Virus record (IMG/VR): IMGVR_UViG_3300045988_070385
DNA from: a virus
Reading direction: 5' to 3' (one strand)
DNA: 28,859 bases
The position numbers and the translations under genes were made by a program. Below, in pieces: positions 4,505 to 28,859 of the stretch; the first letter of the stretch is position 1; the number at the start of each line of letters is the position of its first letter. The notes under the pieces were generated by a model. That model made no database searches. It had not been told where the DNA came from and saw only the letters and a list, made by a program, of their open reading frames with translations.

Positions 4505-4522
4505 TTTTTACGATACGCTGAG

Positions 4523-4551: not shown

Positions 4552-4645
4552 ATTTCTCGGCAAGAAAAGAAATTTAGCCATCTATCTATATATATAATTT
4601 AATTCCCGTCTAGTTTTTTCCTTTCATTTTACGCTAGACGGGGCT

Positions 4646-4987: not shown

Positions 4988-5041
4988 CGAGACGCGGTAG
5001 AGGTCAGGTGTCTGCCGCGTGCCATCTGCCTAGTAGGTGGA

Positions 5042-5115
5042 AGGGCTGTAGTTCAGTGGTTAGAACGGCTAGCTTCGGTTAGTGTATGTCGCGGGTTCAA
5101 ATCCCGTCAGCCCCC
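5042..5115 (+). tRNA. tRNA-like gene with an aberrant anticodon arm (cUUCGg hairpin in place of a 7-nt loop); pseudo-tRNA or decoy candidate
   Basis: The D arm (GTTC-AGTGGTTA-GAAC) and T arm (GCGGG-TTCAAAT-CCCGT) are canonical. The acceptor AGGGCTG/CAGCCCC has an A1:C72 mismatch. The anticodon arm is 16 nt, not 17, and folds best as GCTAGC-TTCG-GTTAGT. The variable region is 7 nt. Confidence 0.55.
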
Positions 5116-5226
5116 TAGCCGGTACCTAATACCATCACTTGTGTGAAAGGTTATGGAGTGTATCAAAGGTTTTCAGTCTGCGGCACTGACTGACATGAGA
5201 TTGCAATTTACACTTGCGATAATCTC

Positions 5227-6576: not shown

Positions 6577-6631
6577 ATAGAGCCGGTAAAGCTTTGTCCT
6601 TTTTCTTTACCGGTGGTTGGTTGACTGGATT

Positions 6632-6663
6632 AAGCCCCCGCTGAGCGCTCCTTGCGGGGGCTT
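6632..6663 (+). terminator. GC-rich hairpin between terL and portal (weak terminator candidate)
   Basis: AAGCCCCCGC-12 nt-GCGGGGGCTT followed by only TCC. A TATAAT follows at 6670..6675. Confidence 0.3.
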
Positions 6664-6714
6664 TCCTAGTATAATGGGAACCGTTATCAATAAGCCTATT
6701 GAAAGACGGTAACA

Positions 6715-8850
6715 TTGTCTAAACTCGGATATAAAATCAGAAGTTTCTTCACGCGTCCAACGTCCCCCGCTTTGACTGAAGGGTGGACTAGGGTTAGCGG
6801 CAGTGGAACGCAAGTGATTCCACCGTATGACGCTTACGCGCAGATTTTTCCATATTCGAACGTCATTGCGGGGCGTTTCGCAACTATCATCCCTTATGCG
6901 GTTGATGCTCAGGGTGAGCGTATCAACCCGGCGCCACCGGCGCTCAAAGCATTGTACGCGCCTAATGACCAATTCTCTTGCCTTGAATTCCTGAAATTCA
7001 TCGCCAATAGCATTCTCACCCAGTCCCATCTTGATATCCTGATCTGGACGAATCAAGGCGGCTACATTCAACCGGGAGGCAACATTACCACGGACAATAT
7101 CGCTGGTTATACTTTCCTCCCACAAGATAGCAGACAGTGGGATAGCAGTCACACGACTTGGACGCATCGCGTCACCATGACCATTAACGGACGTTTGGAA
7201 ACCCGCACTTTTACCCGGAATGAGACTATCGCGCTCAGCTATTCCGCTCACCCGCTCGACCCGTCGCGTGGCATAAGTCCCGCGCAGACCATCCGCAAGT
7301 GGGCAAACGTTGACGACATGATAGCGGATTACGAGCGTGGCTTCTTCGCCAACGGTGCCGTCCCAGCGGGCATGATGGGTATCGTATCCGCTACCGCCGA
7401 TGATTTCACCCGCACCAAGAATCAGCTTGAGCAAGCATTCCAGGGAGCCGGACGCAATAACGGCGTGGTCTATAACATGATTCCCGTTGACCCGTTGAGT
7501 GGTAAACCGTCCGATACGGGGAAACTTGTGTGGGTTCCTTTCCAGCAGGCTAATAATTCGCTTGACTTGTCCAGCCTTAACGATGTGGTAAACAATCGAC
7601 TTGCAAGCGCTTTGGCCGTGCCGGATATCGTGCGCGGTATCGATAATGGCCAGACCTATGCTAATGCGGAGCAGGCGGAACGCGCGTTCATTGAAAACAC
7701 GTTGAAACCGTTGTGCATGACGGTGTGGGACAAATTCCAGTTCGAACTTGACCGCATTACCGGCGGACTCGGCTACGGCATTAATTTCACTTTGGACATT
7801 CCTGCGCAAACGGACGTGCGCAAGGTACAGGCCGACACTCAGGCCGTGCAGGTCGAGACCCTTATCAAGCTTATCAATGCTGGGGCGAGCGTGGAAACTG
7901 CTGTGAAGGCGTTGCATTTGCCCGACGAGTTCAATGCGTTGGAGTTGGAGCCTGCCGCACCGTCTCTTTTCGTGAAGCCGGAATCCCCGCAGGTTGTGCC
8001 GCAGATTCAGGCATCGAAAGATGATGACGTTAACACGGAACCGGTGAAACCGGACGTGGAAGAATCAACCGTAAGCAAGGCAACTAAGCTAGTCCGCAAA
8101 TACTATCGTAACTTGATTGACCTTAATCTAGCGGCGCATAGTTTCGCTAAGCCAGAAGTGGACAGTGGGGAGATTCAAGCCGAACTCGTAGACGGCCTTT
8201 TCTCGGTCTATGAGTCGGAAATCGTCGCATACGCGAACTCGACAGGCAAGACGATTATTCAAGCCATGCAGGAATTAGCCAAAACTAATCCAGACATTGC
8301 CAAGATTCTTGACGCTTGGACGCCCTCACAGATTGCCCAACTTGTCGGCTGGGAGACATTGCCGGATACGTTTGAAAAGGCGTACCGCAAGCAACTGACC
8401 AAGACTGTGGCCGCTGTGACGGGTACTGCGAATAAGAGCATTGCCAAGGTTATCTCGCAAGGCATCAAGGATAAGCTAGATTACAAGGAACTTGTACATG
8501 AATTGTACGGATTGCTTGACGATGACCGAGCCGAATTGCTGGCCGGGAACGAGTTGAGGAATGCTGAACGCTTGGGCAATCTCTACAGCGCTCAAAATCT
8601 AAGCAAGAAAACCGGCGTGACCTTGAAAAAGGTCTGGCACACTAGCGGTTTGGATGCCGGTAGCGAGCAGAAGCCGTGCCCATTCTGCGAGCATATGAAC
8701 GGCAAAGTGGTTGGCCTTGCGGAAAGCTTCATGGCCGAAGGTGACTCCATTGATATTGATGGTGAAACCTTCACCAATGACTATATCTCGATGACTACCG
8801 CGGCGGCGCACCCTAGGTGTCGTTGCACACAGACTTACGAGGTGGCTTGA
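6715..8850 (+). CDS. portal protein fused to a MuF/SPP1 gp7-like minor head protein domain
   Basis: The N-terminal ~420 aa has portal-like motifs (ERGFFANGAVPAGMMG, ANAEQAERAFIENTLKPL). The C-terminus has the MuF signature (CPFCEHMNGKVV...AAAHPRCRCTQ). TTG start with GAAAGACGG upstream. Confidence 0.8.
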   Translation: MSKLGYKIRSFFTRPTSPALTEGWTRVSGSGTQVIPPYDAYAQIFPYSNVIAGRFATIIPYAVDAQGERINPAPPALKALYAPNDQFSCLEFLKFIANSILTQSHLDILIWTNQGGYIQPGGNITTDNIAGYTFLPQDSRQWDSSHTTWTHRVTMTINGRLETRTFTRNETIALSYSAHPLDPSRGISPAQTIRKWANVDDMIADYERGFFANGAVPAGMMGIVSATADDFTRTKNQLEQAFQGAGRNNGVVYNMIPVDPLSGKPSDTGKLVWVPFQQANNSLDLSSLNDVVNNRLASALAVPDIVRGIDNGQTYANAEQAERAFIENTLKPLCMTVWDKFQFELDRITGGLGYGINFTLDIPAQTDVRKVQADTQAVQVETLIKLINAGASVETAVKALHLPDEFNALELEPAAPSLFVKPESPQVVPQIQASKDDDVNTEPVKPDVEESTVSKATKLVRKYYRNLIDLNLAAHSFAKPEVDSGEIQAELVDGLFSVYESEIVAYANSTGKTIIQAMQELAKTNPDIAKILDAWTPSQIAQLVGWETLPDTFEKAYRKQLTKTVAAVTGTANKSIAKVISQGIKDKLDYKELVHELYGLLDDDRAELLAGNELRNAERLGNLYSAQNLSKKTGVTLKKVWHTSGLDAGSEQKPCPFCEHMNGKVVGLAESFMAEGDSIDIDGETFTNDYISMTTAAAHPRCRCTQTYEVA

Positions 8851-9051: not shown

Positions 9052-10812
9052 ATGCAACAGACACTCACATGCGACGCGAACACTGTCAGCAGTGACGGCC
9101 ACACGTTGACGTTCCTTGCCAACTCCGGTACGCGCATGACCAATGGCTACACGGTAGACCTTGCAACACTGCAAGCCCCCGTGAACGACGGCCAACTTAA
9201 GCTCGTAACCGACCTGACCGAATCTGACCGACTGACCTTGCCGCTACTGCTCGACCATATGCCGAGCATCACGGCGCAAGTCGGCATCATCGAGAAACTT
9301 TGGTTTGATGATGACGGATTAATGGCTCAGGCTCGACTAAGCGACAATGAGCAAGGCCAGAACGTGCAACAGTTGGCAAGTGAAGGAATGCTAACGAACT
9401 CTTTCAGCATCACAATCGACTTCGACAATGACCCCGACGAAAACGGTGTAATCCATAACGCCGAACTAGTCGAAATCAGCGTGGTCTATCGAGGTGCCGA
9501 CAGTAAAGCCGTATTCCGTAGTCTAAACAATATTGAAGGAAAAATAATGGAACTCAAGAATAATCTCACCAAGGATGAAGCGCAATCCCTGATTGACCAA
9601 ATCACGGACGCTATCAATGGACTGACCGAAAAGAACGACGACAACACCGAGCCAGAAGAGCCGGTACAGTCCAATGAGGCAGAAAATAGCAAGGAGGGTG
9701 ACACCGTGGCTAATGGTCGAACCAATATCATCATCAACAGCGCGGGCGGTGCGCGTCAGTCTCTCGCCAAGACCAGTGACCCGCTGAAGGACTGGCTGAA
9801 GAGCGAGGACGCTACCAAGGCTTACGAGCAGGCGTTGTGGCGTACCGATAATCAGGGTGTGCAGGGCTTTAAGAATGCTTGGCGTGAGGAACTTGCACGC
9901 CACGCCTATGCTGACAATGCTTCTATTGATGAAGCTAGTGTTGGCAAGCTTGTCCCGACAAGCGTTATTACGGAGATTGAAGACGTTCTCAATAAGGCTA
10001 GCGAGCTGTGGCCGCTGTATCGTAAGCTTGATGTGGACAGCTTCACTGTTGGCGCTCAGCTGGCAGGCTTGACCGATGATACTCGCGCTCACGGCTACAA
10101 GGTTGCTGACTATGGTACCTCGAAGAAGACGCAGAAGTTTAATCTTGTGGAACGTAAGCTTGCCGCCGATTTCGTGGTGAAATATGCAGTACTTAACAAG
10201 GGCGATATCCGCCGCACCGACAAGCCCGGCGCACTCGTCAAGTATCTGCTGGCCGAAATGCCGAACTACATTCTGCACGCGATCGACCGTCAGATTATTC
10301 TTGGCGGCTATACCGACCTTGATTTCTTCCGCTCCGTGCAGACCGACGCTAAGGACACTTCCAGCGAGTTCGCGGGGAAGAATTTCGTTCTGAGCGCGGC
10401 CGAGGGTACTCGTGCTAATCTCGTGCTTGATGTGGTTGGCCTTGCATCCAAGATTACCGCCACCGGTACCAAGGTGCTCGTGCTCAGCCCCGATACCAAG
10501 GTGGATATTATCACTGCGGCTGATGGTATTGGCCGTCCGCTCGTCGGCTACGGTAATGATAATCTCGCCGCCTACCTTGGCGTGGATAAGGTTATCACCC
10601 CGGATTGGTGGACTGATGCGGACGACGCTACGACCCGTGCCGTGATTATCGTTCCGGAAGCCTATGGCGTTGTTGGTGACACGTCTATCAGCGCTTTCAC
10701 TAATTTTGCGCTGAAGACTAATGAGCAGGAATACCTGAGTGAAATCTTCGCTGGTGGTGCTCTGACCAAGGTCAAGAGTGCCGGTATTCTGACTCCGAAG
10801 GCTGGCGCCTGA
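9052..10812 (+). CDS. prohead serine protease (HK97/S78-like) fused to a major capsid protein
   Basis: The N-terminal ~165 aa is protease-like (LPLLLDH...QVG, LTNSFSI, EISVVYRGAD). An acidic linker follows, then a ~370-aa HK97-fold-like capsid region. SD AAGGAAAG. A terminator-like hairpin follows the gene. Confidence 0.75.
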   Translation: MQQTLTCDANTVSSDGHTLTFLANSGTRMTNGYTVDLATLQAPVNDGQLKLVTDLTESDRLTLPLLLDHMPSITAQVGIIEKLWFDDDGLMAQARLSDNEQGQNVQQLASEGMLTNSFSITIDFDNDPDENGVIHNAELVEISVVYRGADSKAVFRSLNNIEGKIMELKNNLTKDEAQSLIDQITDAINGLTEKNDDNTEPEEPVQSNEAENSKEGDTVANGRTNIIINSAGGARQSLAKTSDPLKDWLKSEDATKAYEQALWRTDNQGVQGFKNAWREELARHAYADNASIDEASVGKLVPTSVITEIEDVLNKASELWPLYRKLDVDSFTVGAQLAGLTDDTRAHGYKVADYGTSKKTQKFNLVERKLAADFVVKYAVLNKGDIRRTDKPGALVKYLLAEMPNYILHAIDRQIILGGYTDLDFFRSVQTDAKDTSSEFAGKNFVLSAAEGTRANLVLDVVGLASKITATGTKVLVLSPDTKVDIITAADGIGRPLVGYGNDNLAAYLGVDKVITPDWWTDADDATTRAVIIVPEAYGVVGDTSISAFTNFALKTNEQEYLSEIFAGGALTKVKSAGILTPKAGA

Positions 10813-10824
10813 CGATAAGTGACG

Positions 10825-10859
10825 GGGGTAGGGTTACGACTCTACCCCATCTCGTTTTT
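10825..10859 (+). terminator. hairpin plus T run after the capsid gene
   Basis: GGGGTAG-10 nt-CTACCCC, then atctcgTTTTT. The T run is offset from the stem. Confidence 0.45.
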
Positions 10860-20443: not shown

Positions 20444-20742
20444 TGGGGACGGCTGTTATTTGCGCGATTCTCGGCAGTCAGACGGTGACTATTATCGTGC
20501 AATGGGTGTTGAATAGAATCGATGCGAAACGCAACCCATTACGCGAGGGTGTGAAAGAACTCTTGTTCTGCAAGCTGAAACAGTTTGACGAACAGCGGGA
20601 GCATAACGGTTTCGTGCCCATCGCGGACAAGGAAACAGTCGAACGCGTCTACACAGCCTACCATGCTTTAGGTGGTAATGGTGTGGGCACTGAAATAACT
20701 AACAAGATTCGTACTTGCGCAAGCAGTAGGGAGGGAAAATGA
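20443..20742 (+). CDS. N-terminally membrane-anchored protein adjacent to the lysis cassette
   Basis: One N-terminal hydrophobic span (TAVICAILGSQTVTIIVQWVL). Coupled to the genes on both sides. An alternative start is 20431. Confidence 0.45.
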   Translation: MGTAVICAILGSQTVTIIVQWVLNRIDAKRNPLREGVKELLFCKLKQFDEQREHNGFVPIADKETVERVYTAYHALGGNGVGTEITNKIRTCASSREGK

Positions 20743-21977
20743 AACAAAAGCCGAAACATAAGCGGTTTAAGCGGAGCATGGTCAAGCCGGTTGCCGGTTT
20801 GGCGTTGAGTGCGACTATCATGCTTTCGCCTAGCGTGGCGTTGGCGAACATGAATGGAGTGGACGTGAGCGGATGGCAACCCGCGAACATTACGCGCATC
20901 GTTCCAGGTGACTTCATGATTGTGAAGGCCACGGAGGGTGTGAATTTCACTAACTCTCATTGGGTGAGTCAGATCACGGGTGCGATTGAGACGAATAAGG
21001 TTCATGGCCTGTATCATTATGCGGACGGTGGTAACGCGATTGCGGAAGCCGACTATTTCGTGAACACTATCGGCTCGTATGTTGGCCGTTCCATGCTCGT
21101 GTTGGACTGGGAGAGCTACCGTAACGCGTCATGGGGTAACGGTAATTGGGTTCGCGAGTGGGTTAATCGCGTGCATGATCGTACTAGTGTCTGGCCTGTG
21201 GTTTATGTGCAAGCGTCCGCCGTGTGGCAGATTCCGCAAGACGTGCGCGCCCACTGTATGCTGTGGAAAGCTCAGTATGCGAGCAATGCCGTCACTGGCT
21301 ATCAGTCTCAGCCGTGGAATGCTGGCAGTGCTGGCGAGGGTATGTTGCAATACACGTCTCACGGTATGTTGAGTGGCTATAATGGTTTCCTTGACCTTGA
21401 CTTGTTCTTCGGGGATAAGACCGCTTGGGGTCGGATTGCCTGTGGTGAACGTAGTGGGTGCGTGCCTAATTCGTTCGCTAATACTGGCACCATAACGACG
21501 GTCATGCATGACACACCGAACACCACACCTAACGGTGATGTGAATCAGATGGCGAACGACGTTATCGCGGGCAGATACGGTAATGGCGCGACACGCAAGG
21601 CTTTACTGGGCGGCTATTATGATTCGGTCATGAGGATTGTTAATAATCGTCTTGGATGCGGTACGGCTCAATCCTCTGCGCAATGCGTTTACGTCCAGTC
21701 TGGTGATACGTTGAGTTCGATTGCCTCCCGTTATGGTGGCAGTTGGAATGAGTGGACGGGCTACCGTTCCGGTAATCCGAACATCATTTATGCTGGTGAG
21801 CGTGTTTGCCGTCGCGGGTCTAGCGTTTACACTGGGGGAGCACGTCGTTATACCGTCCGGTCTGGTGACACGTTGAGCGGTATCGCGGCGCGATATAAGA
21901 TTAATGTGAGTCAGATTAAGGGCTATCGTTCGGGTAATCCTAACGTGATTTATCCGGGCGAGACCTTGTATTGGTGA
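20739..21977 (+). CDS. endolysin: signal peptide + GH25 muramidase + two LysM repeats
   Basis: Basic N-terminus, hydrophobic core and VALA-N cleavage-like site. GH25 pattern (GVDVSGWQ..., IVKATEG, GLYHY, LDWE, LWKAQY). Two LysM-like repeats (YVQSGDTLSSIASRYG...; YTVRSGDTLSGIAARY...). Confidence 0.9.
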   Translation: MKQKPKHKRFKRSMVKPVAGLALSATIMLSPSVALANMNGVDVSGWQPANITRIVPGDFMIVKATEGVNFTNSHWVSQITGAIETNKVHGLYHYADGGNAIAEADYFVNTIGSYVGRSMLVLDWESYRNASWGNGNWVREWVNRVHDRTSVWPVVYVQASAVWQIPQDVRAHCMLWKAQYASNAVTGYQSQPWNAGSAGEGMLQYTSHGMLSGYNGFLDLDLFFGDKTAWGRIACGERSGCVPNSFANTGTITTVMHDTPNTTPNGDVNQMANDVIAGRYGNGATRKALLGGYYDSVMRIVNNRLGCGTAQSSAQCVYVQSGDTLSSIASRYGGSWNEWTGYRSGNPNIIYAGERVCRRGSSVYTGGARRYTVRSGDTLSGIAARYKINVSQIKGYRSGNPNVIYPGETLYW

Positions 21978-21987
21978 AAGGGTGATT

Positions 21988-22287
21988 ATGGATATTACGC
22001 AGGCTGAGACTATTGCTGTTGCTATCGTCGGTTTGGTCGCTCCCGTGTTCGTGCAGGTTGTTAAACCTATTCTGCCGGATAACATGACCGCCTTGTTTAG
22101 TCTCGCGGTCAGTGTCGTGCTGGGCATGTTGGCTATCGCGGCTGTTGGCGGGTTCAACCACGGTTACACGTGTGGTGTTCTCCTTGTTGCTGTGATTGGT
22201 GTGTCGCAGACGGTTTACACTGCTGTTAATCAGGTGATGGGCGGCAAGCTCGGCAAAACGTTTGTTGACGAAAATAAGTTGGCCTAG
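21988..22287 (+). CDS. holin (three predicted hydrophobic segments)
   Basis: Three hydrophobic stretches, small size, a charged C-terminus and a position directly after the endolysin. SD GAAAGGGTG. Confidence 0.6.
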   Translation: MDITQAETIAVAIVGLVAPVFVQVVKPILPDNMTALFSLAVSVVLGMLAIAAVGGFNHGYTCGVLLVAVIGVSQTVYTAVNQVMGGKLGKTFVDENKLA

Positions 22288-22341: not shown

Positions 22342-22383
22342 AAGCCGCACGGTTTCCTTTCACCGTGCGGCTTCTCCTTTTTT
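22342..22383 (+). terminator. Rho-independent terminator at the convergence point of the two arms
   Basis: AAGCCGCACGG-10 nt-CCGTGCGGCTT followed by CTCCTTTTTT. Confidence 0.7.
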
Positions 22384-22929: not shown

Positions 22930-23087
22930 TTTGTTTCCTCCCTTGGTTGAAATGATGCGACTTGTTCGCCTTCATCATCAAAAATTGTTGCGACGACTCC
23001 GTGTTCCGCTGATTTTCTTGCCGTGGCCACGGCTTGCCTGAATGTGACGCATACATAATCGACGCCGTTGAATCTTACTACATACAT
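22926..23087 (-). CDS. hypothetical protein, 53 aa (first gene after hairpin H4)
   Basis: Translated by eye: MYVVRFNGVDYVCVTFRQAVATARKSAEHGVVATIFDDEGEQVASFQPREETK. GAAAGGAA SD. ATGA overlap with the next gene. Confidence 0.45.
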   Translation of the reverse strand: MYVVRFNGVDYVCVTFRQAVATARKSAEHGVVATIFDDEGEQVASFQPREETK

Positions 23088-23109
23088 GTTTTATTCCTTT
23101 CAGTTGGGT

Positions 23110-23131
23110 GCCCCGCCCTTGCGGGCGGGGC
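23110..23131 (-). repeat. conserved GC hairpin H4, copy 4 of 4
   Basis: The same 22-nt core as H1-H3. It lies 8 nt after the stop at 23140 and 22 nt before the ATG at 23087. Confidence 0.85.
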
Positions 23132-23139
23132 GGGTGGTG

Positions 23140-23376
23140 TCAGTCGCAGAGTTCTTCAATCTGTGCTTTATATGTGGTGTCATAGCTGGTTTCATGGAAC
23201 TTGTTGACACGTCCGAACGTGAAACCGTATTTGCGTTCACATTTGCGACGGATTGAACGGAGAATGTTCTTTGTTTCCACCGCTTCACTGTAGAACGTGT
23301 AGAAGGCGTCAAGTTCCGGGATGTCGATGGTTTGTTTTCCGTCGAAGTAGTTGATGTTGATTGTTGCGGTGGTCAT
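23140..23376 (-). CDS. cassette small ORF 4, 78-aa hypothetical protein
   Basis: The ATG directly follows promoter/UTR module D, and the ORF is followed by hairpin H4. Confidence 0.6.
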   Translation of the reverse strand: MTTATININYFDGKQTIDIPELDAFYTFYSEAVETKNILRSIRRKCERKYGFTFGRVNKFHETSYDTTYKAQIEELCD

Positions 23377-23441
23377 TTTGATTTGTCCTTCCTTGCTTGG
23401 TTGATAGTTTTATAATACATCACTTGGTTATGCGACACGCC
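23377..23441 (-). promoter_or_regulatory. conserved promoter/5'UTR module, copy D
   Basis: Minus strand reads CGGCGTGTCG-N14-GTATTATAAAACTATCAACCAAGCAAGGAAGGACAAATCAAA-ATG. Confidence 0.55.
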
Positions 23442-23707
23442 GAGCGTTCGACAAACACGCCCCAACACATCGGATACTTCAGCGGCACCAATCGGGATAC
23501 GCGATAATCAGCGCCATACCGTACTTCGGCAAGTCGCATGATAAATTGGTGGGCTCGCTCACGACCTTGGGCAACCCTCTTGTCGTACCCACGCTTACGT
23601 TTAACCCAACCGTCGGCGGTACGCTCGTACACCTCCCAGACGACCCCGATTGCGGAGTAGTGCGCCATCACCTTATAGTCATAGGCGTCAACGTTCTTAT
23701 ACTTCAT
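23420..23707 (-). CDS. hypothetical protein, 95 aa
   Basis: Strong AAGGGAGG SD before ATG 23707. The C-terminal ...ERSACRITK is encoded by the conserved promoter-module DNA. Confidence 0.55.
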   Translation of the reverse strand: MKYKNVDAYDYKVMAHYSAIGVVWEVYERTADGWVKRKRGYDKRVAQGRERAHQFIMRLAEVRYGADYRVSRLVPLKYPMCWGVFVERSACRITK

Positions 23708-23718
23708 TGCATCCTCCC

Positions 23719-24048
23719 TTAATACATTTCCGCAATATGACGGGTGAACGCGCATACGCTCACTGCCGTGAGATAGCCACGTAATCCCGTCTTCCTCGCC
23801 ATGAGGAGCCACACGGGGAAAGTGATGAAGGGAGCGAGACACCAACCGCATGTGGCGAGATTTCGTAGACTGTCAGCCTGTAATGCCTCGTGTGTCTGCC
23901 CCTTCGCATCATACTGCGCTTCGATCGTATTGCAGGCTTCCAGCCATGCTCTGCGCGCCTGTTGCAGACCATGCCCGAAACCGTCCGTGAGCTGGACGCA
24001 AGTGTTGAGGTATCCGGCGACTAGTCCGGCCTGCACTGCCTTGTTCAT
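23719..24048 (-). CDS. hypothetical protein with C-terminal hydrophobic segment, 109 aa
   Basis: AAAGGAG SD and ATGA overlap with the upstream small ORF. Hydrophobic stretch CGWCLAPFITFPVWLLM. Confidence 0.5.
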   Translation of the reverse strand: MNKAVQAGLVAGYLNTCVQLTDGFGHGLQQARRAWLEACNTIEAQYDAKGQTHEALQADSLRNLATCGWCLAPFITFPVWLLMARKTGLRGYLTAVSVCAFTRHIAEMY

Positions 24049-24191
24049 TTCTTTGCTCCTTTGCGGTAGGTGTAGAGTGCCGCCAACATGCACGCGACAC
24101 CGATAATATTAATTAAGTTCATGTTTTCGTTCGCGGATAGCACGATTCCGAAGAGAAAGAGTATCGCTACGAATCCGTCTGTTTTCTTCAT
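24045..24191 (-). CDS. small membrane protein, 48 aa (driven by promoter module E)
   Basis: MKKTDGFVAILFLFGIVLSANENMNLINIIGVACMLAALYTYRKGAKK, with two hydrophobic spans. The ATG directly follows module E. Confidence 0.5.
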   Translation of the reverse strand: MKKTDGFVAILFLFGIVLSANENMNLINIIGVACMLAALYTYRKGAKK

Positions 24192-24254
24192 TTTATTGTC
24201 CTTCCTTGTTTGGTTGATAATTACATAATACACTATTTGCGGACACGGCACGCC
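24192..24254 (-). promoter_or_regulatory. conserved promoter/5'UTR module, copy E (variant CGGCGTGCCG)
   Basis: Minus strand reads CGGCGTGCCG-N14-GTATTATGTAATTATCAACCAAACAAGGAAGGACAATAAA-ATG. It lies immediately downstream of a U-tract terminator. Confidence 0.55.
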
Positions 24255-24255
24255 G

Positions 24256-24299
24256 AAAATAAAAAAAGGGAACCAACGAAATTCATTCGTAGATTCCCC
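24256..24299 (-). terminator. Rho-independent terminator (minus strand)
   Basis: Minus strand reads GGGGAATCTACGAATGAATTTCGTTGGTTCCC (GGGAA/TTCCC and ACGAA/TTCGT pairings) followed by TTTTTTTATTTT. It starts 6 nt after the stop at 24305. Confidence 0.7.
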
Positions 24300-24304
24300 T
24301 TTTA

Positions 24305-24586
24305 TCAGCGAGAGCAATACGCTAAGCACTGCACCTCAAGCTCATCCACATAACGATAACACACACCGTCAAACACGAAAAAAGGCGCGCTAGAATACTT
24401 GTGAGCCTTGCGCAGTGTCCAATATCGGCTATTGCCCGGCTGGACGACCATTAGAGCAAGCATCACGCCGGTTTTCTTTTTGATTCGCACCGTCATTTTC
24501 CGTAGTTCGTCAATCAACTCACGGTGTTTGCATCCCGCGCAATCATCAAACACCGCGTAGATCACACGTCGTGAAATGCTCACCAC
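24305..24586 (-). CDS. thioredoxin/glutaredoxin-fold protein (CAGC redox motif)
   Basis: VIYAVFDDCAGCKH (CxxC after a beta-strand) and a later PFFVFDG motif, as in NrdH/glutaredoxin-like proteins. The GTG start overlaps the upstream stop, and a GGAGGTG SD is present. Confidence 0.45.
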   Translation of the reverse strand: MVSISRRVIYAVFDDCAGCKHRELIDELRKMTVRIKKKTGVMLALMVVQPGNSRYWTLRKAHKYSSAPFFVFDGVCYRYVDELEVQCLAYCSR

Positions 24587-25467
24587 TCAACACCTCCCAG
24601 TTTTTGCAGTTCGTCAATGAGATGCAACGTCTGCAATTCTTTTGTCTCCTGTGCTTCGATTTCACTTGCAACACTCCGCCGCTCTACCGCGAACACCTCA
24701 TGTTGCAAACTGCCATAAACCCGGTCGTCAAACATGATGAAGAAAACCGTCTGCAAGTCTGGGTTGACGACGAAATACTGTAACACTTGCGTCTGATACT
24801 GCTCTGGGATGAAGTCGAACTCTCGACGCGGTTCAAGAACCTCCGGGAACAGTTTGAGAGACAACGAATACAATTCGGCTCGTTGGTCGTCTGACGTTTC
24901 CGAATCGTTGAGCATCTGGAACACGCGGAACGGAATTACCGTCTGCAAATGGTATTTCGTGCCCAGGCTTTTCGCTTCGAACGCGAACGTTGGCGGGTAT
25001 GGGATGCCGTTAATGTCGATTTGCGGCTTGGCGTAAGCGTCGGGGCTGACCGCAATTCGGTCATCCGCATTGCTCACCCACATTCCGGCATCGAACTCGA
25101 CAATTTCGGGGGAAATGTCAAGTTTATCGCACGCCATCATGATATTGGTGTTTTCCAATCGGTGGCCGCGTTCCATTGGCGGTTCCCCGTCCGGCTGTTC
25201 CGCAATCATATCGGCAAGCAACTGCCAGAAATCGAGGTTGACTTTCAACCGTTCGTTATCTCGTTTGGCTTGTTCGGCTTTCTCTCTGTATTCTTCGGCC
25301 TTTTCTTCGGTCTTTGCTTTGTCTGCCATGGCTTCGAGCTTGGATACGTCCTTTTGGGCGTAATGTTCGAGGGAGAGTGTTCCGGCTTTGGTGCCAGTGA
25401 TTTTGCCTATTCGCGCGTCTAACCATGCTTGCGTATCCTGTGCTTGGGAAACGTTTAAAATCTTCAT
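24580..25467 (-). CDS. YqaJ-type (lambda Exo-like, PD-(D/E)XK) recombination exonuclease
   Basis: N-terminal W.DARIGKITGTKAG motif, then GHRLEN, VSPDAY and FEAK catalytic-type motifs. SD AAGGAAGGAAAA. Contains a Lys/Glu-rich insertion (KLEAMADKAKTEEKAEEYREKAEQAKRDNERLK). Confidence 0.75.
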   Translation of the reverse strand: MKILNVSQAQDTQAWLDARIGKITGTKAGTLSLEHYAQKDVSKLEAMADKAKTEEKAEEYREKAEQAKRDNERLKVNLDFWQLLADMIAEQPDGEPPMERGHRLENTNIMMACDKLDISPEIVEFDAGMWVSNADDRIAVSPDAYAKPQIDINGIPYPPTFAFEAKSLGTKYHLQTVIPFRVFQMLNDSETSDDQRAELYSLSLKLFPEVLEPRREFDFIPEQYQTQVLQYFVVNPDLQTVFFIMFDDRVYGSLQHEVFAVERRSVASEIEAQETKELQTLHLIDELQKLGGVEW

Positions 25468-25468
25468 T

Positions 25469-25876
25469 TTAGTTTTCCTTCCTTACCGGTAATCCGTCTT
25501 CCGTGGTGGCGAGCATGTATGCTTTCAGCAGTGTGTCCGCTATTTTTTGACGTCGTGCGGGGGGAATACGCCGGAACTTGGTTTCCCAATGCGCGACCTG
25601 ACATTGCCGTACCCCGTACATTTGCGCCATTTCCCTTTGGCTGATACCGAACACGTTGCGTAGATATTTCAACCGTTCGCTATCGTCCAATGAGTCAAGA
25701 TACGTATTCCGATTGTTGACGGTACGCAGGTTATTCTCATGGTCGATGGTGAATAGGTTGCCGTTTTTTGACTGGATCAATTGCGCGTAAATGTCTTCTT
25801 TAATCCTGTATTCTCTGTCCCCGGCGACGGTTTTGAACGTGATGGGCATGGCACCCGGCCATAGCGTGAGTCTCAT
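25469..25876 (-). CDS. XRE-family HTH protein (HTH in the C-terminal half)
   Basis: LRNVFGISQREMAQMYGVRQCQVAHWETKFRRIP matches the Cro/C1-type HTH pattern. AAGAGGA SD and ATGA overlap with the upstream gene. Confidence 0.65.
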   Translation of the reverse strand: MRLTLWPGAMPITFKTVAGDREYRIKEDIYAQLIQSKNGNLFTIDHENNLRTVNNRNTYLDSLDDSERLKYLRNVFGISQREMAQMYGVRQCQVAHWETKFRRIPPARRQKIADTLLKAYMLATTEDGLPVRKEN

Positions 25877-26145
25877 TTATCCTCTTTCTCTTCGTCGTAG
25901 TGGACGTAGGCGATTCCGTTACCAGTTTTGAATTGTCCTCTTACGATGTTTTTGTAAATCGTCGGTTCGATTCCAGCCAAGTAGAGCAAGTCTAGTGCGT
26001 CTTCTCTGGAATTTGGGTAGATTGCGATCTGCGGCGTGTAGTCTTTCAACTCAATGTCCGGCGACTCCGCGGCCACTTCGTCAAGCTGGGCTAGCGTCTC
26101 TCTGAGGAATCTGACGTATTGGCCGAGGGTTATTGTGTCTTTCAT
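25873..26145 (-). CDS. hypothetical protein, 90 aa (first gene after hairpin H3)
   Basis: ATG 26145 is preceded by AAAAGGAATAATA, 21 nt from hairpin H3. The longer ORF-track version runs through the hairpin. Confidence 0.55.
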   Translation of the reverse strand: MKDTITLGQYVRFLRETLAQLDEVAAESPDIELKDYTPQIAIYPNSREDALDLLYLAGIEPTIYKNIVRGQFKTGNGIAYVHYDEEKEDK

Positions 26146-26166
26146 TATTATTCCTTTTCGGTGGGG

Positions 26167-26188
26167 GCCCCGCCCTTGCGGGCGGGGC
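26167..26188 (-). repeat. conserved GC hairpin H3, copy 3 of 4
   Basis: The same 22-nt core as the other copies. It lies 7 nt after the stop at 26196 and 21 nt before the ATG at 26145. Confidence 0.85.
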
Positions 26189-26195
26189 GGGGGGG

Positions 26196-26399
26196 TTATT
26201 CTCCAACGATTTCCGCGAACTTGCCGGTGAGCCACTTGAGATATTCTTTTCTGGTGGCGAATTTGCCGTACGCGTGTGGTGTCTCGCAGTATTCGCCTGT
26301 TGCGTTCTCATTCCACCATGTTTCGACGTCTACCGTGCCGTCCTCGTTGGTGGTGGCCTTGATGTTGTATCCCTTGAAGCAATTGGTTTCGGTGGTCAT
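26196..26399 (-). CDS. cassette small ORF 3, 67-aa hypothetical protein
   Basis: The ATG directly follows module C, and the ORF is followed by hairpin H3. Confidence 0.6.
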   Translation of the reverse strand: MTTETNCFKGYNIKATTNEDGTVDVETWWNENATGEYCETPHAYGKFATRKEYLKWLTGKFAEIVGE

Positions 26400-26460
26400 T
26401 TTGTTTGTCCTTTCGTTTGTTGGTAATTAAATATTACCACATGTGGGGACGCGACACGCC
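26400..26460 (-). promoter_or_regulatory. conserved promoter/5'UTR module, copy C
   Basis: Minus strand reads CGGCGTGTCG-N14-GTAATATTTAATTACCAACAAACGAAAGGACAAACAAA-ATG. The -10 is TAATAT, preceded by TGG. Confidence 0.6.
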
Positions 26461-26463
26461 GGA

Positions 26464-26631
26464 CTAGACCCAAGACATGACAATAAACCCCATTCCAGCA
26501 AGACCGATAAGGAGAGTAGTCAATGTGAGAAGGACCATAAAATTATCCTCCCACTGAAATGCAATCCACAAAGCGACAGCGGAAACAATCGTAAGCTCCA
26601 AGAAACCGACGAATATGGCAATCCTTTTCAC
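26464..26631 (-). CDS. small two-span membrane protein, 55 aa
   Basis: Translated by eye: VKRIAIFVGFLELTIVSAVALWIAFQWEDNFMVLLTLTTLLIGLAGMGFIVMSWV. The GTG start overlaps the ERF stop (GTGA). Confidence 0.4.
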   Translation of the reverse strand: MKRIAIFVGFLELTIVSAVALWIAFQWEDNFMVLLTLTTLLIGLAGMGFIVMSWV

Positions 26632-27224
26632 TTGGCACCACCCTTGCTGATGGCTTCGCGCAAGAGTCTCACGTCATGCTCCGTCAAGTCCTGCGGCCTA
26701 CGCACCTGATGACCGAATTGATCACTCAACGCGTTGACGTAAAAACCGAGATTCGTTCCAGCCGCCTGCGCCAATTGGTTAAGCTCGTTGACTTCCTGTG
26801 CGGTGGCCTTGTGTTCCTGTGGAGTGGCGGAATAGTCGCGCATTGCCGCCCCGTCATCATCCTTGTCCGGGAAAATACCAAGAACAGCATAGAGCGAATA
26901 GCGTCGAGCGTAAGTGACTGCGGAGCCGTTGGCTTGAGGGTCAGGCACGATCAAGAACGGGTACGAGCCAACCGTAATGTTTTCATCTTCGTCGAAAATG
27001 ATTGTTTCAACCTGCCCGTACGACGTGTTTCCAGCCGATACAGCCCAGCGGACTTCTTGCCTGAACGCGCAACCATTTTGTGCGAAAATCGGTTTAATTG
27101 TTTTGAGGATGGTTGCTAAGTTCAAATACTGGTATGTGCGTTTCCCTGCATTGGCAGTGAGGTCGGTCACGAAGTTGGGGACTTCGTTCAGGACTTTCAT
27201 ATATTTTGCGTTTAGGTTGCTCAT
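26628..27224 (-). CDS. ERF-family single-strand annealing protein
   Basis: YQYLNLATILKTIKPIFAQNG ... GSAVTYARRYSLYAVLGIFPDKDDDG is the ERF signature. GAAAGGAA SD before ATG 27224; the ORF-track TTG at 27239 lies inside the SD region. Confidence 0.8.
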   Translation of the reverse strand: MSNLNAKYMKVLNEVPNFVTDLTANAGKRTYQYLNLATILKTIKPIFAQNGCAFRQEVRWAVSAGNTSYGQVETIIFDEDENITVGSYPFLIVPDPQANGSAVTYARRYSLYAVLGIFPDKDDDGAAMRDYSATPQEHKATAQEVNELNQLAQAAGTNLGFYVNALSDQFGHQVRRPQDLTEHDVRLLREAISKGGAK

Positions 27225-27245
27225 TGTGGTTCCTTTCAATTGGGT

Positions 27246-27267
27246 GCCCCGCCCTTGCGGGCGGGGC
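27246..27267 (-). repeat. conserved GC hairpin H2, copy 2 of 4
   Basis: The same 22-nt core as the other copies. It lies 9 nt after the stop at 27277 and 21 nt before the ATG at 27224. Confidence 0.85.
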
Positions 27268-27276
27268 GGGGTGGGT

Positions 27277-27471
27277 TTAGAGTGCGTGTTCCTTGAGTAG
27301 TTCGGTGAACTCGTCGGTGTCTACCTGTTCATAATCGGTGTAGCCGTTCATGTCGCAGATGGTGCGGAGGTCTTTCGCGGCTCCGTAGGTGTCCCAATTA
27401 CCATCATCCTGTCCGCTGTTTTCAAGGTAGCTGATGATGTAGGCTTCTGCTGTACTGAGGTTGATTTCCAT
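27277..27471 (-). CDS. cassette small ORF 2, strongly acidic 64-aa protein
   Basis: MEINLSTAEAYIISYLENSGQDDGNWDTYGAAKDLRTICDMNGYTDYEQVDTDEFTELLKEHAL has 15 Asp/Glu against 3 Lys/Arg. The ATG directly follows module B, and the ORF is followed by hairpin H2. Confidence 0.6.
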   Translation of the reverse strand: MEINLSTAEAYIISYLENSGQDDGNWDTYGAAKDLRTICDMNGYTDYEQVDTDEFTELLKEHAL

Positions 27472-27532
27472 TTTGTTTGTCCTTTCGTTTGTTGGTAATT
27501 ACATAATACATCATTGTTGAGTACGACACGCC
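27472..27532 (-). promoter_or_regulatory. conserved promoter/5'UTR module, copy B
   Basis: Minus strand reads CGGCGTGTCG-N14-GTATTATGTAATTACCAACAAACGAAAGGACAAACAAA-ATG. Confidence 0.6.
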
Positions 27533-27954
27533 GAACGCGGTAGAATCTCGCCCAACCGACTCAACCCCCGCGCGCTCTCAAGACCACGGAACCGTTTAGC
27601 TGATTGCGCGGACTCTTCCAAACCGCGCCCACTCAACCGTTTCCGCCGATACTCCCAACTCGCCTCACCCTCAATGCCCAGTGCGCGCATTTCACGCGTA
27701 ATGTCGGCTTCGGAAGGCTTATGGTCACGTTTCCATCTGCACCAAAACGCATTGAGATCGGCGGGCATGAGATACGGACGCTTCTTCGCATATTCCGGGC
27801 TTGCGAAAAATTGGCGTATGGCTTCTTTCGCCACGTCCAATCGCATGTCCTGCGCTAACGCTTCCGTCCATGCGGCCACCTGGATATCGGTCACAAGACG
27901 ATTATCAAAAGCGCTGGCATAGGTTAGGAGCGCCTGCACCTGCAACTTGTTCAT
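27511..27954 (-). CDS. hypothetical protein, 147 aa
   Basis: AAGGATGG SD and ATGA overlap with the upstream gene. The C-terminal ...PRSACRTQQ is encoded by promoter-module DNA. No confident motif. Confidence 0.55.
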   Translation of the reverse strand: MNKLQVQALLTYASAFDNRLVTDIQVAAWTEALAQDMRLDVAKEAIRQFFASPEYAKKRPYLMPADLNAFWCRWKRDHKPSEADITREMRALGIEGEASWEYRRKRLSGRGLEESAQSAKRFRGLESARGLSRLGEILPRSACRTQQ

Positions 27955-28364: not shown

Positions 28365-28852
28365 TTTGCTCCCTTTGATATGGTTTCAATTCTTCTCCCA
28401 AGCCAACGCATAACCGGCACTGCCATGGAATTACCTAACACGCCGATTCGCTCACGGTACCTCAGACAGTCAGTCCATCCAGGCGGGAACCCCTGGAGCG
28501 CTTCGCACTCTTCAGCAGTAAGCCGCCTGAAAGGATACACGCCACCCCAAACGTAGGGCGGGTCATTGCGATTATGGCGAAGCAATGTCGGGCAAGCGTC
28601 GCTCATTGTTGGCGCAGAAGATTGCGTGTCTATGCGGCATTGGACTTTATTACTTCCTGACAAGCGTCCCTCAAGCCTGCTGGCTCGGAGAGCTTCGGCC
28701 TTTTGTCCAGCCTTGCAAGTATCCCCCTGCAAGCTTGCACTGTCATAAAGCACGTTGACGGCACGTCTCCAGTCGTGAGTATTGATGACAAGGAAGATTC
28801 TTTTACGTCGTTGGGGTACTCCGAAGTATTGAGCGTCAAGCACTCGCCATGC
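28361..28852 (-). CDS. DNA (cytosine-5)-methyltransferase, C-terminal segment (motifs VIII-X), continues from 32..475 across the circular junction
   Basis: AWRVLDAQYFGVPQRRKRIFLV (motif VIII), a variable target-recognition region, TAEECEALQGFP (motif IX) and LGNSMAVPVMRWLG (motif X). This frame is +1 relative to the N-terminal segment at the G8 tract (28852..28859, equivalent to 48..55). Confidence 0.85.
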   Translation of the reverse strand, partial: AWRVLDAQYFGVPQRRKRIFLVINTHDWRRAVNVLYDSASLQGDTCKAGQKAEALRASRLEGRLSGSNKVQCRIDTQSSAPTMSDACPTLLRHNRNDPPYVWGGVYPFRRLTAEECEALQGFPPGWTDCLRYRERIGVLGNSMAVPVMRWLGRRIETISKGAK

Positions 28853-28859
28853 CCCCCCC
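28805..28859. repeat. 55-nt terminal overlap, identical to 1..55
   Basis: See the feature at 1..55. Confidence 0.9.

Follow-up and report, generated by a model that had tools for sequence, protein, structure and literature searches.

Small early genes swapped among promoter-like/hairpin slots of a gut siphophage, a variant of the T4-like promoter/stem-loop cassettes

Introduction

The promoter-early stem-loops (PeSLs) of T4-like myoviruses (Arbiol et al. 2010, PMC2839356; Comeau et al. 2014, PMC4122927) are the closest known system to the locus described here, the leftward early arm of a small, virulent-looking human-gut siphophage of ~28.8 kb that probably infects Bifidobacterium, a Gram-positive host. 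The arm is a new variant of such cassettes, in which a limited pool of payloads is swapped among slots. In both systems, reiterated modules of early promoter (or promoter-like) sequence, GC stem-loop, Shine–Dalgarno (SD) sequence, and ATG flank small ORFans and give the payload a ready expression context, and the insertion, deletion, and replacement junctions between related genomes fall in the modules. The PeSL is one composite motif of ~100 bp whose stem-loop lies within or beside a consensus sigma70 promoter, and the same motif lies on both sides of the ORF, so that a single crossover excises a mini-circle; here the modules differ, a promoter-like module (P) standing on the left and a hairpin module (H) on the right. 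The promoter-like part here, unlike that of PeSLs, has no sigma70 −35 element, and whereas PeSL stem-loops terminate efficiently, the present hairpin must be read through. PeSLs number ~50 copies in the hyperplastic regions of 170-kb Gram-negative myoviruses, whereas this ~29-kb siphophage of a Gram-positive host has five fixed slots, each heading an operon of core genes.

Integron cassettes are promoterless ORFs with a 3′ palindromic element, placed behind a resident promoter. The present payloads share that layout and, like integron cassettes, form a limited pool that is reshuffled. Morons of lambdoid phages were reportedly described by Juhala and co-workers in 2000. With the morons of temperate phages (Cumby et al. 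2012, PMC3594210), the arm shares extra genes between genes that are adjacent in relatives, promoter-like and hairpin flanks, and horizontal spread; morons, however, are individually different units, each with its own promoter and a real terminator, whereas the boundaries here are identical copies.

The start-associated sequences with extended inverted repeats (SAS/ESAS) of Cluster K mycobacteriophages (Pope et al. 2011, PMC3203893) likewise place, after a conserved inverted repeat, a conserved SD-bearing stretch that lies a few bases upstream of start codons; the copies, found in an actinobacteriophage, recur in a single orientation. ESAS arms, in contrast, are imperfect 17-bp repeats with variable spacers, and they accompany particular gene families from genome to genome; their description reports no shuffling of cassettes (Pope et al. 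2011, PMC3203893), and their sequences are unrelated to the present modules. The 17-bp dyad repeats of Cluster O and the stoperators of Cluster A mycobacteriophages (Cresawn et al. 2015, PMC4351075) also provide many short conserved repeat copies in the non-structural arm, but these are unoriented or protein-binding sites, often intragenic, and lack the pairing with a promoter module and payload seen here. An insertion of gene 14 in Corndog is flanked by a 17-bp direct repeat that is single copy in other genomes and unrelated to the dyad repeats (PMC4351075).

Anatomy of the leftward early arm

The window, by which we mean the whole 28,859-nt stretch of DNA analyzed, is a circular contig: its bases 1–55 equal 28805–28859, and the slot 1 unit therefore spans the contig junction, as a first-pass annotation of the sequence had proposed. 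The early arm covers ~8.5 kb of the minus strand and comprises five units, each headed by a P module of ~65 nt. Repeat and motif counts recovered all of the reiterated elements at the minus-strand positions given by that annotation, with the P modules forming a five-copy family of 61 nt and the hairpin modules a four-copy family of 64 nt.

All slot features lie on the minus strand. In slot 1, the P module (1201–1262) follows a DnaD-like gene; its decamer CGGCGTGTCG (1253–1262) and −10-like block (1223–1237) are succeeded by a leader and SD and by the ATG (1198–1200) of payload D (946–1200; 84 aa), an ORFan. The H module (889–945; hairpin 913–934) then carries the SD-like GAAAGAAA ahead of backbone gene g135 (ATG 889–891). 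The slot 2 P module (27472–27533; decamer 27524–27533; −10-like block 27494–27508) overlaps the 3′ end of g147 and precedes payload A (27277–27471; 64 aa; a predicted three-helix bundle), an H module with GAAAGGAA (27222–27276; hairpin 27246–27267), and the ERF gene (ATG 27222–27224). Slot 3 follows a 55-aa membrane ORF; its P module (26400–26461; decamer 26452–26461) has a TAATAT variant of the −10-like block (26422–26436), and payload B (26196–26399; 67 aa) is followed by an H module with AAAAGGAA (26143–26195; hairpin 26167–26188) and by g90 (ATG 26143–26145). In slot 5, the P module (23377–23442; decamer 23433–23442), whose −10 block is of the type TATTATAAAACTATC (23403–23417), overlaps the 3′ end of g95 and is succeeded by payload C (23140–23376; 78 aa), an H module with GAAAGGAA (23085–23139; hairpin 23110–23131), and g53 (ATG 23085–23087).

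The slot 4 P module (24192–24255), with the decamer variant CGGCGTGCCG (24246–24255), is fused directly to K48, a 48-aa membrane ORF (24045–24191) that in relatives comes after payload and hairpin. The first-pass annotation had this fifth module driving the ORF; module and terminator are indeed there, but K48 is a backbone gene rather than a payload, so the slot is empty. The terminator (24256–24303) is a canonical intrinsic one, with a stem-loop and U tract (dG −20.4 kcal/mol, z −4.9); it closes the YqaJ–g93 block directly upstream of the slot 4 P module and is kept in relatives.

The four window payloads, at 64, 67, 78, and 84 aa, fall within the annotated range of 64 to 84 aa and, as had been stated, are mutually unrelated, no homology among them being detectable. 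They have no matches in Pfam, PHROG, or PDB, or by fold, which leaves the anti-defence or host-takeover role suggested at first pass conjectural; their net charges are −12 (payload A), −4, −1, and −11 (payload D). The observation made from the sequence at first pass is confirmed, and its interpretation is partly supported.

The promoter-like module

Each P module consists of CGGCGTGTCG, a 13-nt variable spacer, TGTATTATGTAATTACC, a CA-rich leader, an SD, and the ATG. In the window, CGGCGTGTCG is exact in four of the five modules and has one mismatch in the fifth; the −10-like TAWTATDTAAYTAYC occurs six times at two or fewer mismatches, against 0.46 expected, and five of these occurrences are the P modules. 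Across 79 distinct copies, the decamer is invariant, TGTATTATGTAATTACC is near-invariant, and the 13-nt spacer is constant in length but variable in sequence. The gap from the decamer to the TATTAT/TAATAT hexamer is 15 nt (14–16 nt in variant copies), and distant variants retain only the decamer and TAATAT/TATAAT 14–16 nt downstream. The leader of ~35 nt is CA-rich and unstructured, with GAAAGGA as its SD. No conserved RNA fold was found in P (−1.3 kcal/mol), which points to a DNA-level element.

The slot 4 copy starts right where a canonical U-tract terminator ends, so transcription of the genes that follow must begin anew; this position, together with the two blocks at fixed spacing and the −10-like TATTAT, suggests that P is most likely a promoter. 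A sigma70 scan of the window did not call the P modules and revealed no TTGACA-like −35 in them, and P may therefore require an extra factor, or may not be a promoter; the vegetative promoters of B. breve are canonical (PMC5746004). An XRE/HTH_3 regulator (25469–25876, minus strand) and a 59-aa HTH_17/MerR-like regulator encoded by the first rightward gene (2247–2426, plus strand) are conceivable candidates for a factor acting on P.

The missing −35 would also suit a module that acts in the RNA of one long early transcript, with P furnishing an AU-rich processing site and a translation-enhancing leader. The decamer lies inside the 3′ end of the upstream ORF in slots 1, 2, and 5 and two bases past the upstream stop in slot 3, and with such a location, in or directly past the upstream ORF, it would be transcribed in every slot; UGUAUUAUGUAAUUACC is moreover AU-rich and unstructured. 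This reading nonetheless appears improbable, given the slot 4 copy behind a strong canonical terminator, the conservation of two blocks around a variable spacer of fixed length, and the fact that what distant variants retain is precisely the decamer and, at 14–16 nt, a TATAAT-like hexamer.

The hairpin module

The four minus-strand hairpins of the window are identical over 22 nt, GCCCCGCCC-GCAA-GGGCGGGGC, with a perfect 9-bp, all-GC stem and a GNRA loop, and contribute about −23.5 kcal/mol. The hairpin GCCCCGCCCGCAAGGGCGGGGC has four exact occurrences, all on the minus strand, compared with 0.00 expected in shuffles. From the payload stop to the hairpin are 7–11 nt, and from the hairpin to the next ATG 21–22 nt. 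The first of these distances agrees with the first-pass annotation, but the C-richness it ascribed to that stretch is not kept in relatives and tracks the payload; the stretch after the hairpin does not. Similarly, GAAAGGAA is present in three of the four hairpin modules to which it had been assigned, the fourth having GAAAGAAA. Among 66 distinct hairpin copies, 96.5% of cells are paired, and the variation amounts to three compensatory double changes and seven G·U-type single changes. With a stem that scarcely varies, covariation is thin, and recognition at the DNA level, or no more than frequent copying, could account for the conservation.

A terminator scan of the minus strand did not call the hairpins, which have no T run. 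The hairpin cannot serve as an efficient terminator, since the backbone blocks begin 21–22 nt on, with no room for a promoter; transcription from P must accordingly read through H. From its sequence and position, we read H as an attenuator or RNA stabilizer, not a terminator.

Classical morons, in which P, ORF, and H form an autonomous unit, H terminates, and the backbone is transcribed separately, would present the same layout of promoter-like module, small ORF, and GC hairpin, and would leave the flanking genes adjacent in related genomes, as in empty slots. Some transcript 3′ ends in B. breve, too, coincide with GC stem-loops that have no poly-T (PMC5746004). H, however, lacks a U tract while the phage has a canonical U-tract terminator 1 kb away, and the 21–22 nt between H and the backbone block hold only an SD and no promoter of the block's own. 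Morons are often deviant in composition, whereas payload GC (0.46–0.56) is not distinct from that of the backbone (0.50 ± 0.04); they are typically expressed from the prophage, whereas the ORFs scanned yielded no integrase or lysogeny module. We therefore consider autonomous morons unlikely.

The near-invariance of the hairpin sequence, although any GC stem would fold, could alternatively reflect a structure-specific recombination site, an attC analog processed by a phage enzyme in an integron-like system. The right-hand junction lies in or at the 22-nt hairpin, the hairpin loop is inverted in one relative, ORF F and its hairpin entered an unrelated phage as a unit, and the cassettes are promoterless behind a resident promoter. 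Yet no tyrosine or serine recombinase, and none of the IntI type, was found among the ORFs scanned; the perfect stem lacks the extrahelical, bulged bases that define attC, and the G·U-type variants favor a sense-strand RNA role. Some payloads have no H, payload D moved without one, the left-hand junctions lie in ordinary sequence homology, and five separate single-cassette slots contrast with the one array of an integron. With junctions compatible with plain short-homology recombination, an integron-like mechanism seems quite doubtful.

Payload exchange among relatives and beyond

About 35–40 related genomes of ~30 kb, recovered from human-gut metagenomes, have one five-slot backbone in common (its genes and slots were mapped on about 25 IMG/VR and about 20 ENA/Logan contigs). 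The occupants mapped belong to about a dozen small ORFan families, eight of which (A, B, B*, C*, D, D*, E, and G) are each found in two or three different slots. An occupied slot holds one payload, rarely two, and the hairpin follows most payloads but is absent after some (H114, I115); where slots are empty, the flanking genes are adjacent. Payload A occupies slot 2 in the window and in L046, which is the window's own genome, and slot 3 in all other mapped genomes; in slot 3 carriers of the identical 64-aa payload, ERF is 76% and m55 58–65% identical. Payload B occupies slot 3 here, whereas most relatives carry it in slot 4 and one has it in slot 5. Boundaries and backbone are thus kept while the ORFs differ, in line with the cassette system and payload swapping first proposed, and the converse pattern, in which diverged boundaries always enclose the same ORFs, is not what the relatives show. 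Similarity between slots extends from the decamer up to the next ATG, and the sequence of the P spacer goes mostly with the slot.

The data come entirely from metagenomic contigs, and assemblers can be led astray by repeats; the reiteration might then be an assembly artifact, or else a vertically inherited local duplication of regulatory DNA, with no exchange in either case. An independent MEGAHIT contig, built at k = 127, which exceeds the module length, reproduces the arrangement of the window with 100% identical proteins, and the common arrangement is also present on a 59.7-kb contig with broken ORFs that is long-read-like in appearance. These independent assemblies exclude an artifact. P modules from different slots seldom share an exact match of at least 55 nt (4 of 3975 pairs), and many of the arrangements were each seen in several contigs drawn from different studies. 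Duplication or artifact without exchange is already contradicted and retains a negligible probability.

We estimate a probability of about 70% for the reading as a whole, in which the five P-headed units are transcription units started at P, H acts in the RNA, and payloads are swapped by short-homology recombination at P and H. The anatomy, the slot architecture, the shuffling of payloads, the extent of the shared sequence, and the spread to unrelated phages are observed; the promoter activity of P, the RNA role of H, and the enzymes at work are inferences. Each unit is headed by one copy of the same putative promoter-plus-leader module, and the backbone genes of the unit begin only after an insertion slot; an empty slot is P fused to the backbone gene, and a filled one contains one payload, rarely two, mostly then H, with a fresh SD for the backbone gene. 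In the RNA, H would most likely be a pause site or partial attenuator and/or a 3′-end protector, in keeping with the B. breve 3′ ends cited above; it would keep payload expression high compared with that of the following block and insulate the translation starts. The reiterated P and H modules, with only ~20–65 nt of identity, would provide the points at which homologous or annealing-type recombination crosses over, with the ERF, YqaJ, and RusA functions of the phage itself as plausible agents. Crossover stretches of only ~22–25 nt are short for classical homologous recombination, and the backbone-encoded ERF-family single-strand annealing protein (26628–27224, minus strand; PF04404, 1.4e-17) is a candidate catalyst of exchange at such short homologies. 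A YqaJ-like exonuclease (24580–25467, minus strand; PF09588, 1.2e-06) is also in the backbone, and the presence of both genes makes an ERF/YqaJ role plausible; the window further encodes a RusA Holliday-junction resolvase (3177–3602, plus strand) and an SSB (2743–3180). About a dozen payload families are moved among five slots and between genomes in this way, and a leader/SD–ORF–hairpin–SD unit can also land before a gene of an unrelated phage, as one such cassette has.

An unrelated 47-kb phage carries payload D at 95% identity, there without P or H; with H114 and I115 also lacking the hairpin, the modules are not required for transfer. Payload F, with its hairpin and SD, is 97% identical in an unrelated contig, where a different promoter stands ahead of it.

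Five slots in one backbone draw on a small pool of ORFs

Relatives were retrieved by the GC hairpin and by the pattern of P, the ~65-nt promoter-like module that heads each insertion point. They form three sets: about 25 IMG/VR contigs of 24-31 kb with roughly 85% nucleotide identity, 38 stretches from human-gut metagenomes of many studies, and a set of ENA and Logan contigs. The sets overlap slightly (contigs of 29,997 and 27,935 nt occur in two of them), and we estimate that they represent ~35-40 distinct genomes. All relatives share one backbone with five insertion points, or slots, in the order DnaD, slot 1, g135 to g147, slot 2, ERF and m55, slot 3, g90, g135b, YqaJ and g93, slot 4, K48 (a 48-aa membrane ORF), g109 and g95, slot 5, and g53, g68 and g121. 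The first-pass annotation had read the reiterated modules as a cassette system, with boundaries kept and ORFs replaced; across the related genomes the backbone is indeed kept, and the ORFs between the modules both differ and change slot.

These small ORFans (payloads) belong to about a dozen families, and a second batch of 48 loci added none. Payload A lies in slot 2 of the window and in slot 3 of all other mapped genomes except L046, which is the window's own genome. Payload B is found in slots 3, 4, and 5, B* in slots 1 and 4, C* in slots 2 and 5, D in slots 1 and 2, D* in slots 1 and 4, E in slots 1, 2, and 5, and G in slots 2, 4, and 5. A slot may also carry two ORFs, or none, in which case P is joined directly to the backbone gene. 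Such empty slots lie between g93 and K48 in the window, DnaD and g135 in L006 and L047, and g147 and ERF in L033. K48, previously counted as a fifth payload, is not one: in relatives it comes after a payload and a hairpin, and slot 4 of the window is empty. The payload A protein is exactly identical in slot 3 of genomes whose ERF (76%), m55 (58-65%), and g90 (80-90%) have diverged from those of the window, and its nucleotide differences are all synonymous. Payload A is therefore a real, constrained gene that moved recently relative to the backbone.

Limits of the exchanged unit

Copies of the same payload in different slots are alike from the invariant decamer of P to the ATG that follows the hairpin, and unrelated beyond. 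By gapped alignment, chosen since the leader has indels, similarity reaches at most ~67 nt upstream of the payload ATG and at most ~29 nt past the hairpin in all pairs of different slots. The modules themselves are mosaic: the P spacer is mostly slot-specific and the ten bases preceding the hairpin are payload-specific, whereas those after it are not. Together with the similarity limits, this mosaicism places the crossovers inside stretches of ~20-65 nt. One genome carries identical 67-nt P modules in two slots, a sign of homogenization by copying. The five-slot architecture, the shuffling of a small pool of payloads, and the boundaries of the moving unit are thus direct observations on the genomes.

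Repeated modules could also generate such arrangements as assembly chimeras, an explanation that we reject. The window arrangement (D, A, B, empty, C) recurs, with proteins 100% identical, in an independent human-gut contig assembled at k=127, which exceeds the length of either module; only 4 of 3975 pairs of P modules from different slots share an exact match of at least 55 nt; and a 59.7-kb contig also argues against chimerism. That contig, which carries payload A, was considered as a prophage and rejected, the 20 kb of it that were examined containing only phage genes.

The P module as a candidate promoter

Five P modules and four hairpins lie on the minus strand at the positions originally assigned to them. 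The −10-like block occurs six times in the window (0.46 expected), five of them within P modules. In an alignment of 79 distinct P copies from the window and its relatives, the decamer CGGCGTGTCG is invariant, the following 13 nt are fixed in length and variable in sequence, and TGTATTATGTAATTACC, which includes TATTAT and the 8-bp palindrome GTAATTAC, is nearly invariant. A CA-rich leader ending in AAGGA then precedes the ATG by 8-10 nt. In more distant variants, all that remains is the decamer, with TAATAT or TATAAT 14-16 nt downstream of it, which identifies this pair of blocks as the functional core. P has no conserved RNA structure, and a folded form of the module was rejected.

In slots 1, 2, and 5, the decamer overlaps the final codons of the gene upstream; in slot 3, it lies two bases past that gene's stop codon. 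P accordingly provides the C-terminal tails and stop codons of g147, g95, and the DnaD-like gene, whose last codons it encodes (window 27511-27533, 23420-23442, and 1250-1262); g147 and g95 end in ...SACR.. and the DnaD-like protein in ..SGVS.

In slot 4, P starts directly after a canonical stem-loop and U-tract terminator (dG −20.4 kcal/mol, z −4.9) that is conserved in relatives. This strong terminator is the best argument that P restarts transcription, and we infer that P is the promoter and leader of each unit. Vegetative promoters of the sigma70/SigA type combine a TTGACA-like −35 with a TATAAT-like −10, 16-18 bp apart. In P, the −10-like TATTAT/TAATAT is present and conserved, whereas the −35 position reads GCGTGT, with no TTGACA-like element, and the conserved upstream block is the decamer; a sigma70 scan called no P copy. 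Bifidobacterium breve has the canonical vegetative consensus TTGACA-17-TATAAT, to which the −10 contributes most (PMC5746004). P may be a −10-driven promoter aided by a decamer-binding factor, for which the two small phage HTH proteins, a 59-aa HTH_17/MerR-like protein (2247-2426, plus strand) and an XRE/HTH_3 regulator (25469-25876, minus strand), would be candidates.

The hairpin is apparently read through

The 22-nt hairpin that follows each payload (H) has four exact copies in the window, where none is expected. Its stem of nine G-C pairs, closed by a GCAA loop, contributes approximately −23.5 kcal/mol. Across 66 distinct copies, 96.5% of cells are paired, three pairs each show one compensatory double change, and seven cells show single changes of the G.U type, which would be A.C mismatches if read on the other strand. 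Folding of H in the sense-strand RNA has modest support from these comparisons; covariation is little informative because the stem is otherwise nearly invariant. The loop variants ACGC, ACAA, ACAC, and GCGT are tolerated.

An intrinsic terminator consists of a GC stem-loop with an immediate U tract. No U tract follows the H stem, whose tails are ACCCAAUUGA, CCCCACCGAA, ACCCAACUGA, and AAUCAACCGA, and a terminator scan called none on the minus strand. The first gene of each backbone block begins 21-22 nt past the stem with only an SD between, so that ERF and the g90-to-g93 block, which includes YqaJ, need read-through of H. Thus, H cannot be an efficient terminator while the backbone genes are expressed. 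We infer that it is a read-through RNA hairpin supplying a fresh SD, its likeliest roles being pausing or partial attenuation, and 3′-end protection of the payload message. In B. breve, GC stem-loops without poly-T coincide with transcript ends (PMC5746004). A G-quadruplex in the G-rich complement of the C-run and hairpin was also rejected, since relatives do not conserve the C-run.

Two relatives carry unusual hairpins. Near 8118 of L034 (oriented), the loop is inverted, TTGC for GCAA, as if the palindrome had flipped. Near 13 of L028 (oriented), complementary flanks, including part of the SD region, lengthen the stem to 21 bp.

Payload proteins

The four window payloads (64, 67, 78, and 84 aa; net charges −12, −4, −1, and −11) are mutually unrelated, in agreement with the first-pass annotation. 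Ten payloads gave no Pfam or PHROG match, and payloads A-D gave none in a PDB sequence search. AlphaFold2 confidently predicts a three-helix bundle for payload A (pLDDT 94) and a small alpha/beta fold for payload D (pLDDT 79); Foldseek searches of both models against PDB and BFVD returned no significant match, the best being an unnamed viral protein at E 0.06. The strong acidity of several payloads, such as A, D, and D*, is compatible with DNA mimicry or anti-defense roles without being evidence for them. Payload GC (0.46-0.56) is not distinct from that of the backbone (0.50 ± 0.04).

Payloads in unrelated and distant phages

Payload F occurs in an otherwise unrelated 18.7-kb contig (L019, IMG/VR 3300045988_005064, 10480-10830) together with its leader, the identical hairpin, and the SD, a stretch of ~345 nt that is ~97% identical and whose similarity stops exactly at the ATG of the next gene. 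There it lies behind a promoter of the extended −10 type, TGGTATGAT, with a T-rich upstream region. An unrelated phage of ~47 kb, represented by four ENA contigs of up to 47 kb (L056-L059; two from bovine metagenomes, two from others), carries payload D with 95% nucleotide identity. The junctions fall at the ORF ends, neither P nor H is present, and the transferred copy has lost its stop codon and gained 11 residues. Genes of this phage include a DNA_pol3_beta_2-like protein of 706-728 aa, a dUTPase, and a metallophosphatase.

Three tandem D paralogs, 92, 81, and 68% identical and each preceded by a P-like module, lie at 2100-3800 of a more distant phage contig (L055; GCA_900526155.1, UMDI01059395.1). 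A 217-aa pentapeptide-repeat protein is encoded within the same cluster of small genes. The distant relative L042 (IMG/VR 3300045988_043167), with ERF 49% and YqaJ 47% identical, has at 3381-8388 a promoter-like module of its own in four copies, whose palindrome is TGATATAT..ATATATCA; two of these copies continue into an SD-ATG leader, one of which ends in the same AACGAAAGGACAAACAAAATG as the window.

Genome organization and probable host

The window is ~28.8 kb, assembled as a circle, and the contig is taken as circular because bases 1-55 recur at 28805-28859. The rightward genes encode SSB, RusA, three tRNAs, the large terminase, portal, a protease/capsid fusion, tail proteins, and an endolysin with GH25, CW_7, and LysM domains. 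The leftward arm runs from ~2053 across the circular junction to ~22382 and encodes a DnaD-like/HTH_36 protein, a C5 methylase, a DUF3310 protein, the ERF annealing protein, the XRE regulator, the YqaJ exonuclease, and many small ORFs. The large terminase shares 52% identity with its counterpart in BlindBasel1 and BlindUri1, cultured phages of Bifidobacterium asteroides, relatives of the endolysin (48-58% identical) occur only in Bifidobacterium genomes, and every related contig with an origin on record comes from a human-gut metagenome. By this homology, the host is very probably a human-gut Bifidobacterium. GenBank phages gave no nucleotide match to the window, and none of 185,579 species genomes contains the P pattern, so that neither a prophage form nor a host copy is indicated. 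The repeats are missing from BlindBasel1, which is thus not directly usable as an experimental model.

Relation to known systems and mechanism of exchange

Integron systems have an IntI-type tyrosine recombinase beside the cassette site, and the 3′ end of each cassette is attC, an imperfect palindrome of 57-141 bp with conserved extrahelical bases. The phage resembles them in that the hairpin traveled with its ORF in one inter-phage transfer, but H is a 22-nt element with a perfect 9-bp stem and a 4-nt loop, and a Pfam/PHROGs scan of the ORFs, covering the structural arm in part, found no integrase domain. As with morons, the genes flanking an insertion are adjacent in related phages, at the empty slots; unlike morons, the payloads are not autonomous units with their own factor-independent terminator, since no U tract follows H and no other promoter serves the backbone genes downstream, and the nucleotide composition of the payloads is not deviant. 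The SAS/ESAS repeats of Cluster K mycobacteriophages likewise share some features and, like morons and integron cassettes, differ in a defining property.

T4-like phages have the nearest described system, the PeSL cassettes. In these, an early promoter of sigma70 consensus lies together with a stem-loop in one composite motif, within ~100 bp between genes, the promoter is strong in reporter assays, the stem-loop is an efficient terminator/attenuator, and excised mini-circles hold an ORF and one chimeric motif (PMC2839356, PMC4122927). In both systems, reiterated regulatory modules beside ORFans serve as recombination points and expression signals, and the insertion, deletion, and replacement junctions between related genomes fall in these motifs. 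Here, however, the payload separates the two elements, with the promoter-like module on one side and the hairpin on the other, and the two flanks differ; the candidate promoter lacks a TTGACA-like −35 and is not of sigma70 consensus; the hairpin, with no U tract and the next gene 21-22 nt downstream, is apparently read through; and phage type and host differ. The window system is not a PeSL member in the strict sense.

Exchange would proceed by recombination at short identical stretches. Annealing systems of the Red/RecET type work with tens of bases, which makes the phage's ERF annealing protein, YqaJ exonuclease, SSB, and RusA candidate enzymes; template switching at the stable hairpin would be an alternative. 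A stronger proposal is that the hairpin is the recognition structure of a dedicated cassette exchange in a virulent phage, an integron-like function without an integrase, with ORF-hairpin units captured behind resident promoters by ERF/YqaJ/RusA or by template switching at a stalled hairpin. We consider this unlikely; if true, these gut phages would have a portable, population-wide accessory pool, possibly anti-defense, from which unrelated phages could also receive genes.

Until now, the documented cases of module-mediated accessory-gene shuffling came from large T4-like phages that infect Gram-negative bacteria. The same process, in a very clean form with five slots, operates in small phages of a Gram-positive gut commensal, and the exchanged unit, SD-ORF-hairpin-SD, is delimited to the base. 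Anything between P and H is then a simple finder rule for the accessory pool of these uncultured phages, and such genes are natural first candidates for host-takeover or anti-defense functions. The promoter-like module, the leader, and the read-through hairpin with its SD may also offer compact, naturally portable expression parts for Bifidobacterium, which has few genetic tools.

Additional features of the genome

A divergent control region at 2054-2246 separates the DnaD-like gene, read leftward, from the 59-aa HTH_17 gene, read rightward. Its repeated CCTTGTAAA motifs and its palindrome CCTTGTAAAAATCTTTTACAAAGG are likely operators, and a P-like TGTGTCG-N15-TAAATA lies near 2216-2180 on the minus strand. 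At 22342-22373 (plus strand), where the endolysin/holin end converges on the last leftward gene, a 12-bp stem-loop with a T run is probably the terminator dividing the two arms. The long ORFs on the minus strand at 20658-22157, which overlap the endolysin gene, probably do not represent genes. The IMG/VR relatives all fall under one sample number, 3300045988, with >66,000 contig indices, and two of them match in size ENA human-gut contigs of different studies; this entry looks like a compendium of gut viral genomes and not a single metagenome. Rfam matched only three tRNAs in the window, with no match at P or H. These genes lie at 4646-5115 (plus strand) of the 28.8-kb phage and comprise tRNA-Ser(GCT), tRNA-Gln(TTG), and a third (5042-5115, plus strand) that is a tRNA by Rfam and to which ARAGORN assigns an abnormal anticodon loop ('tc', type unknown).
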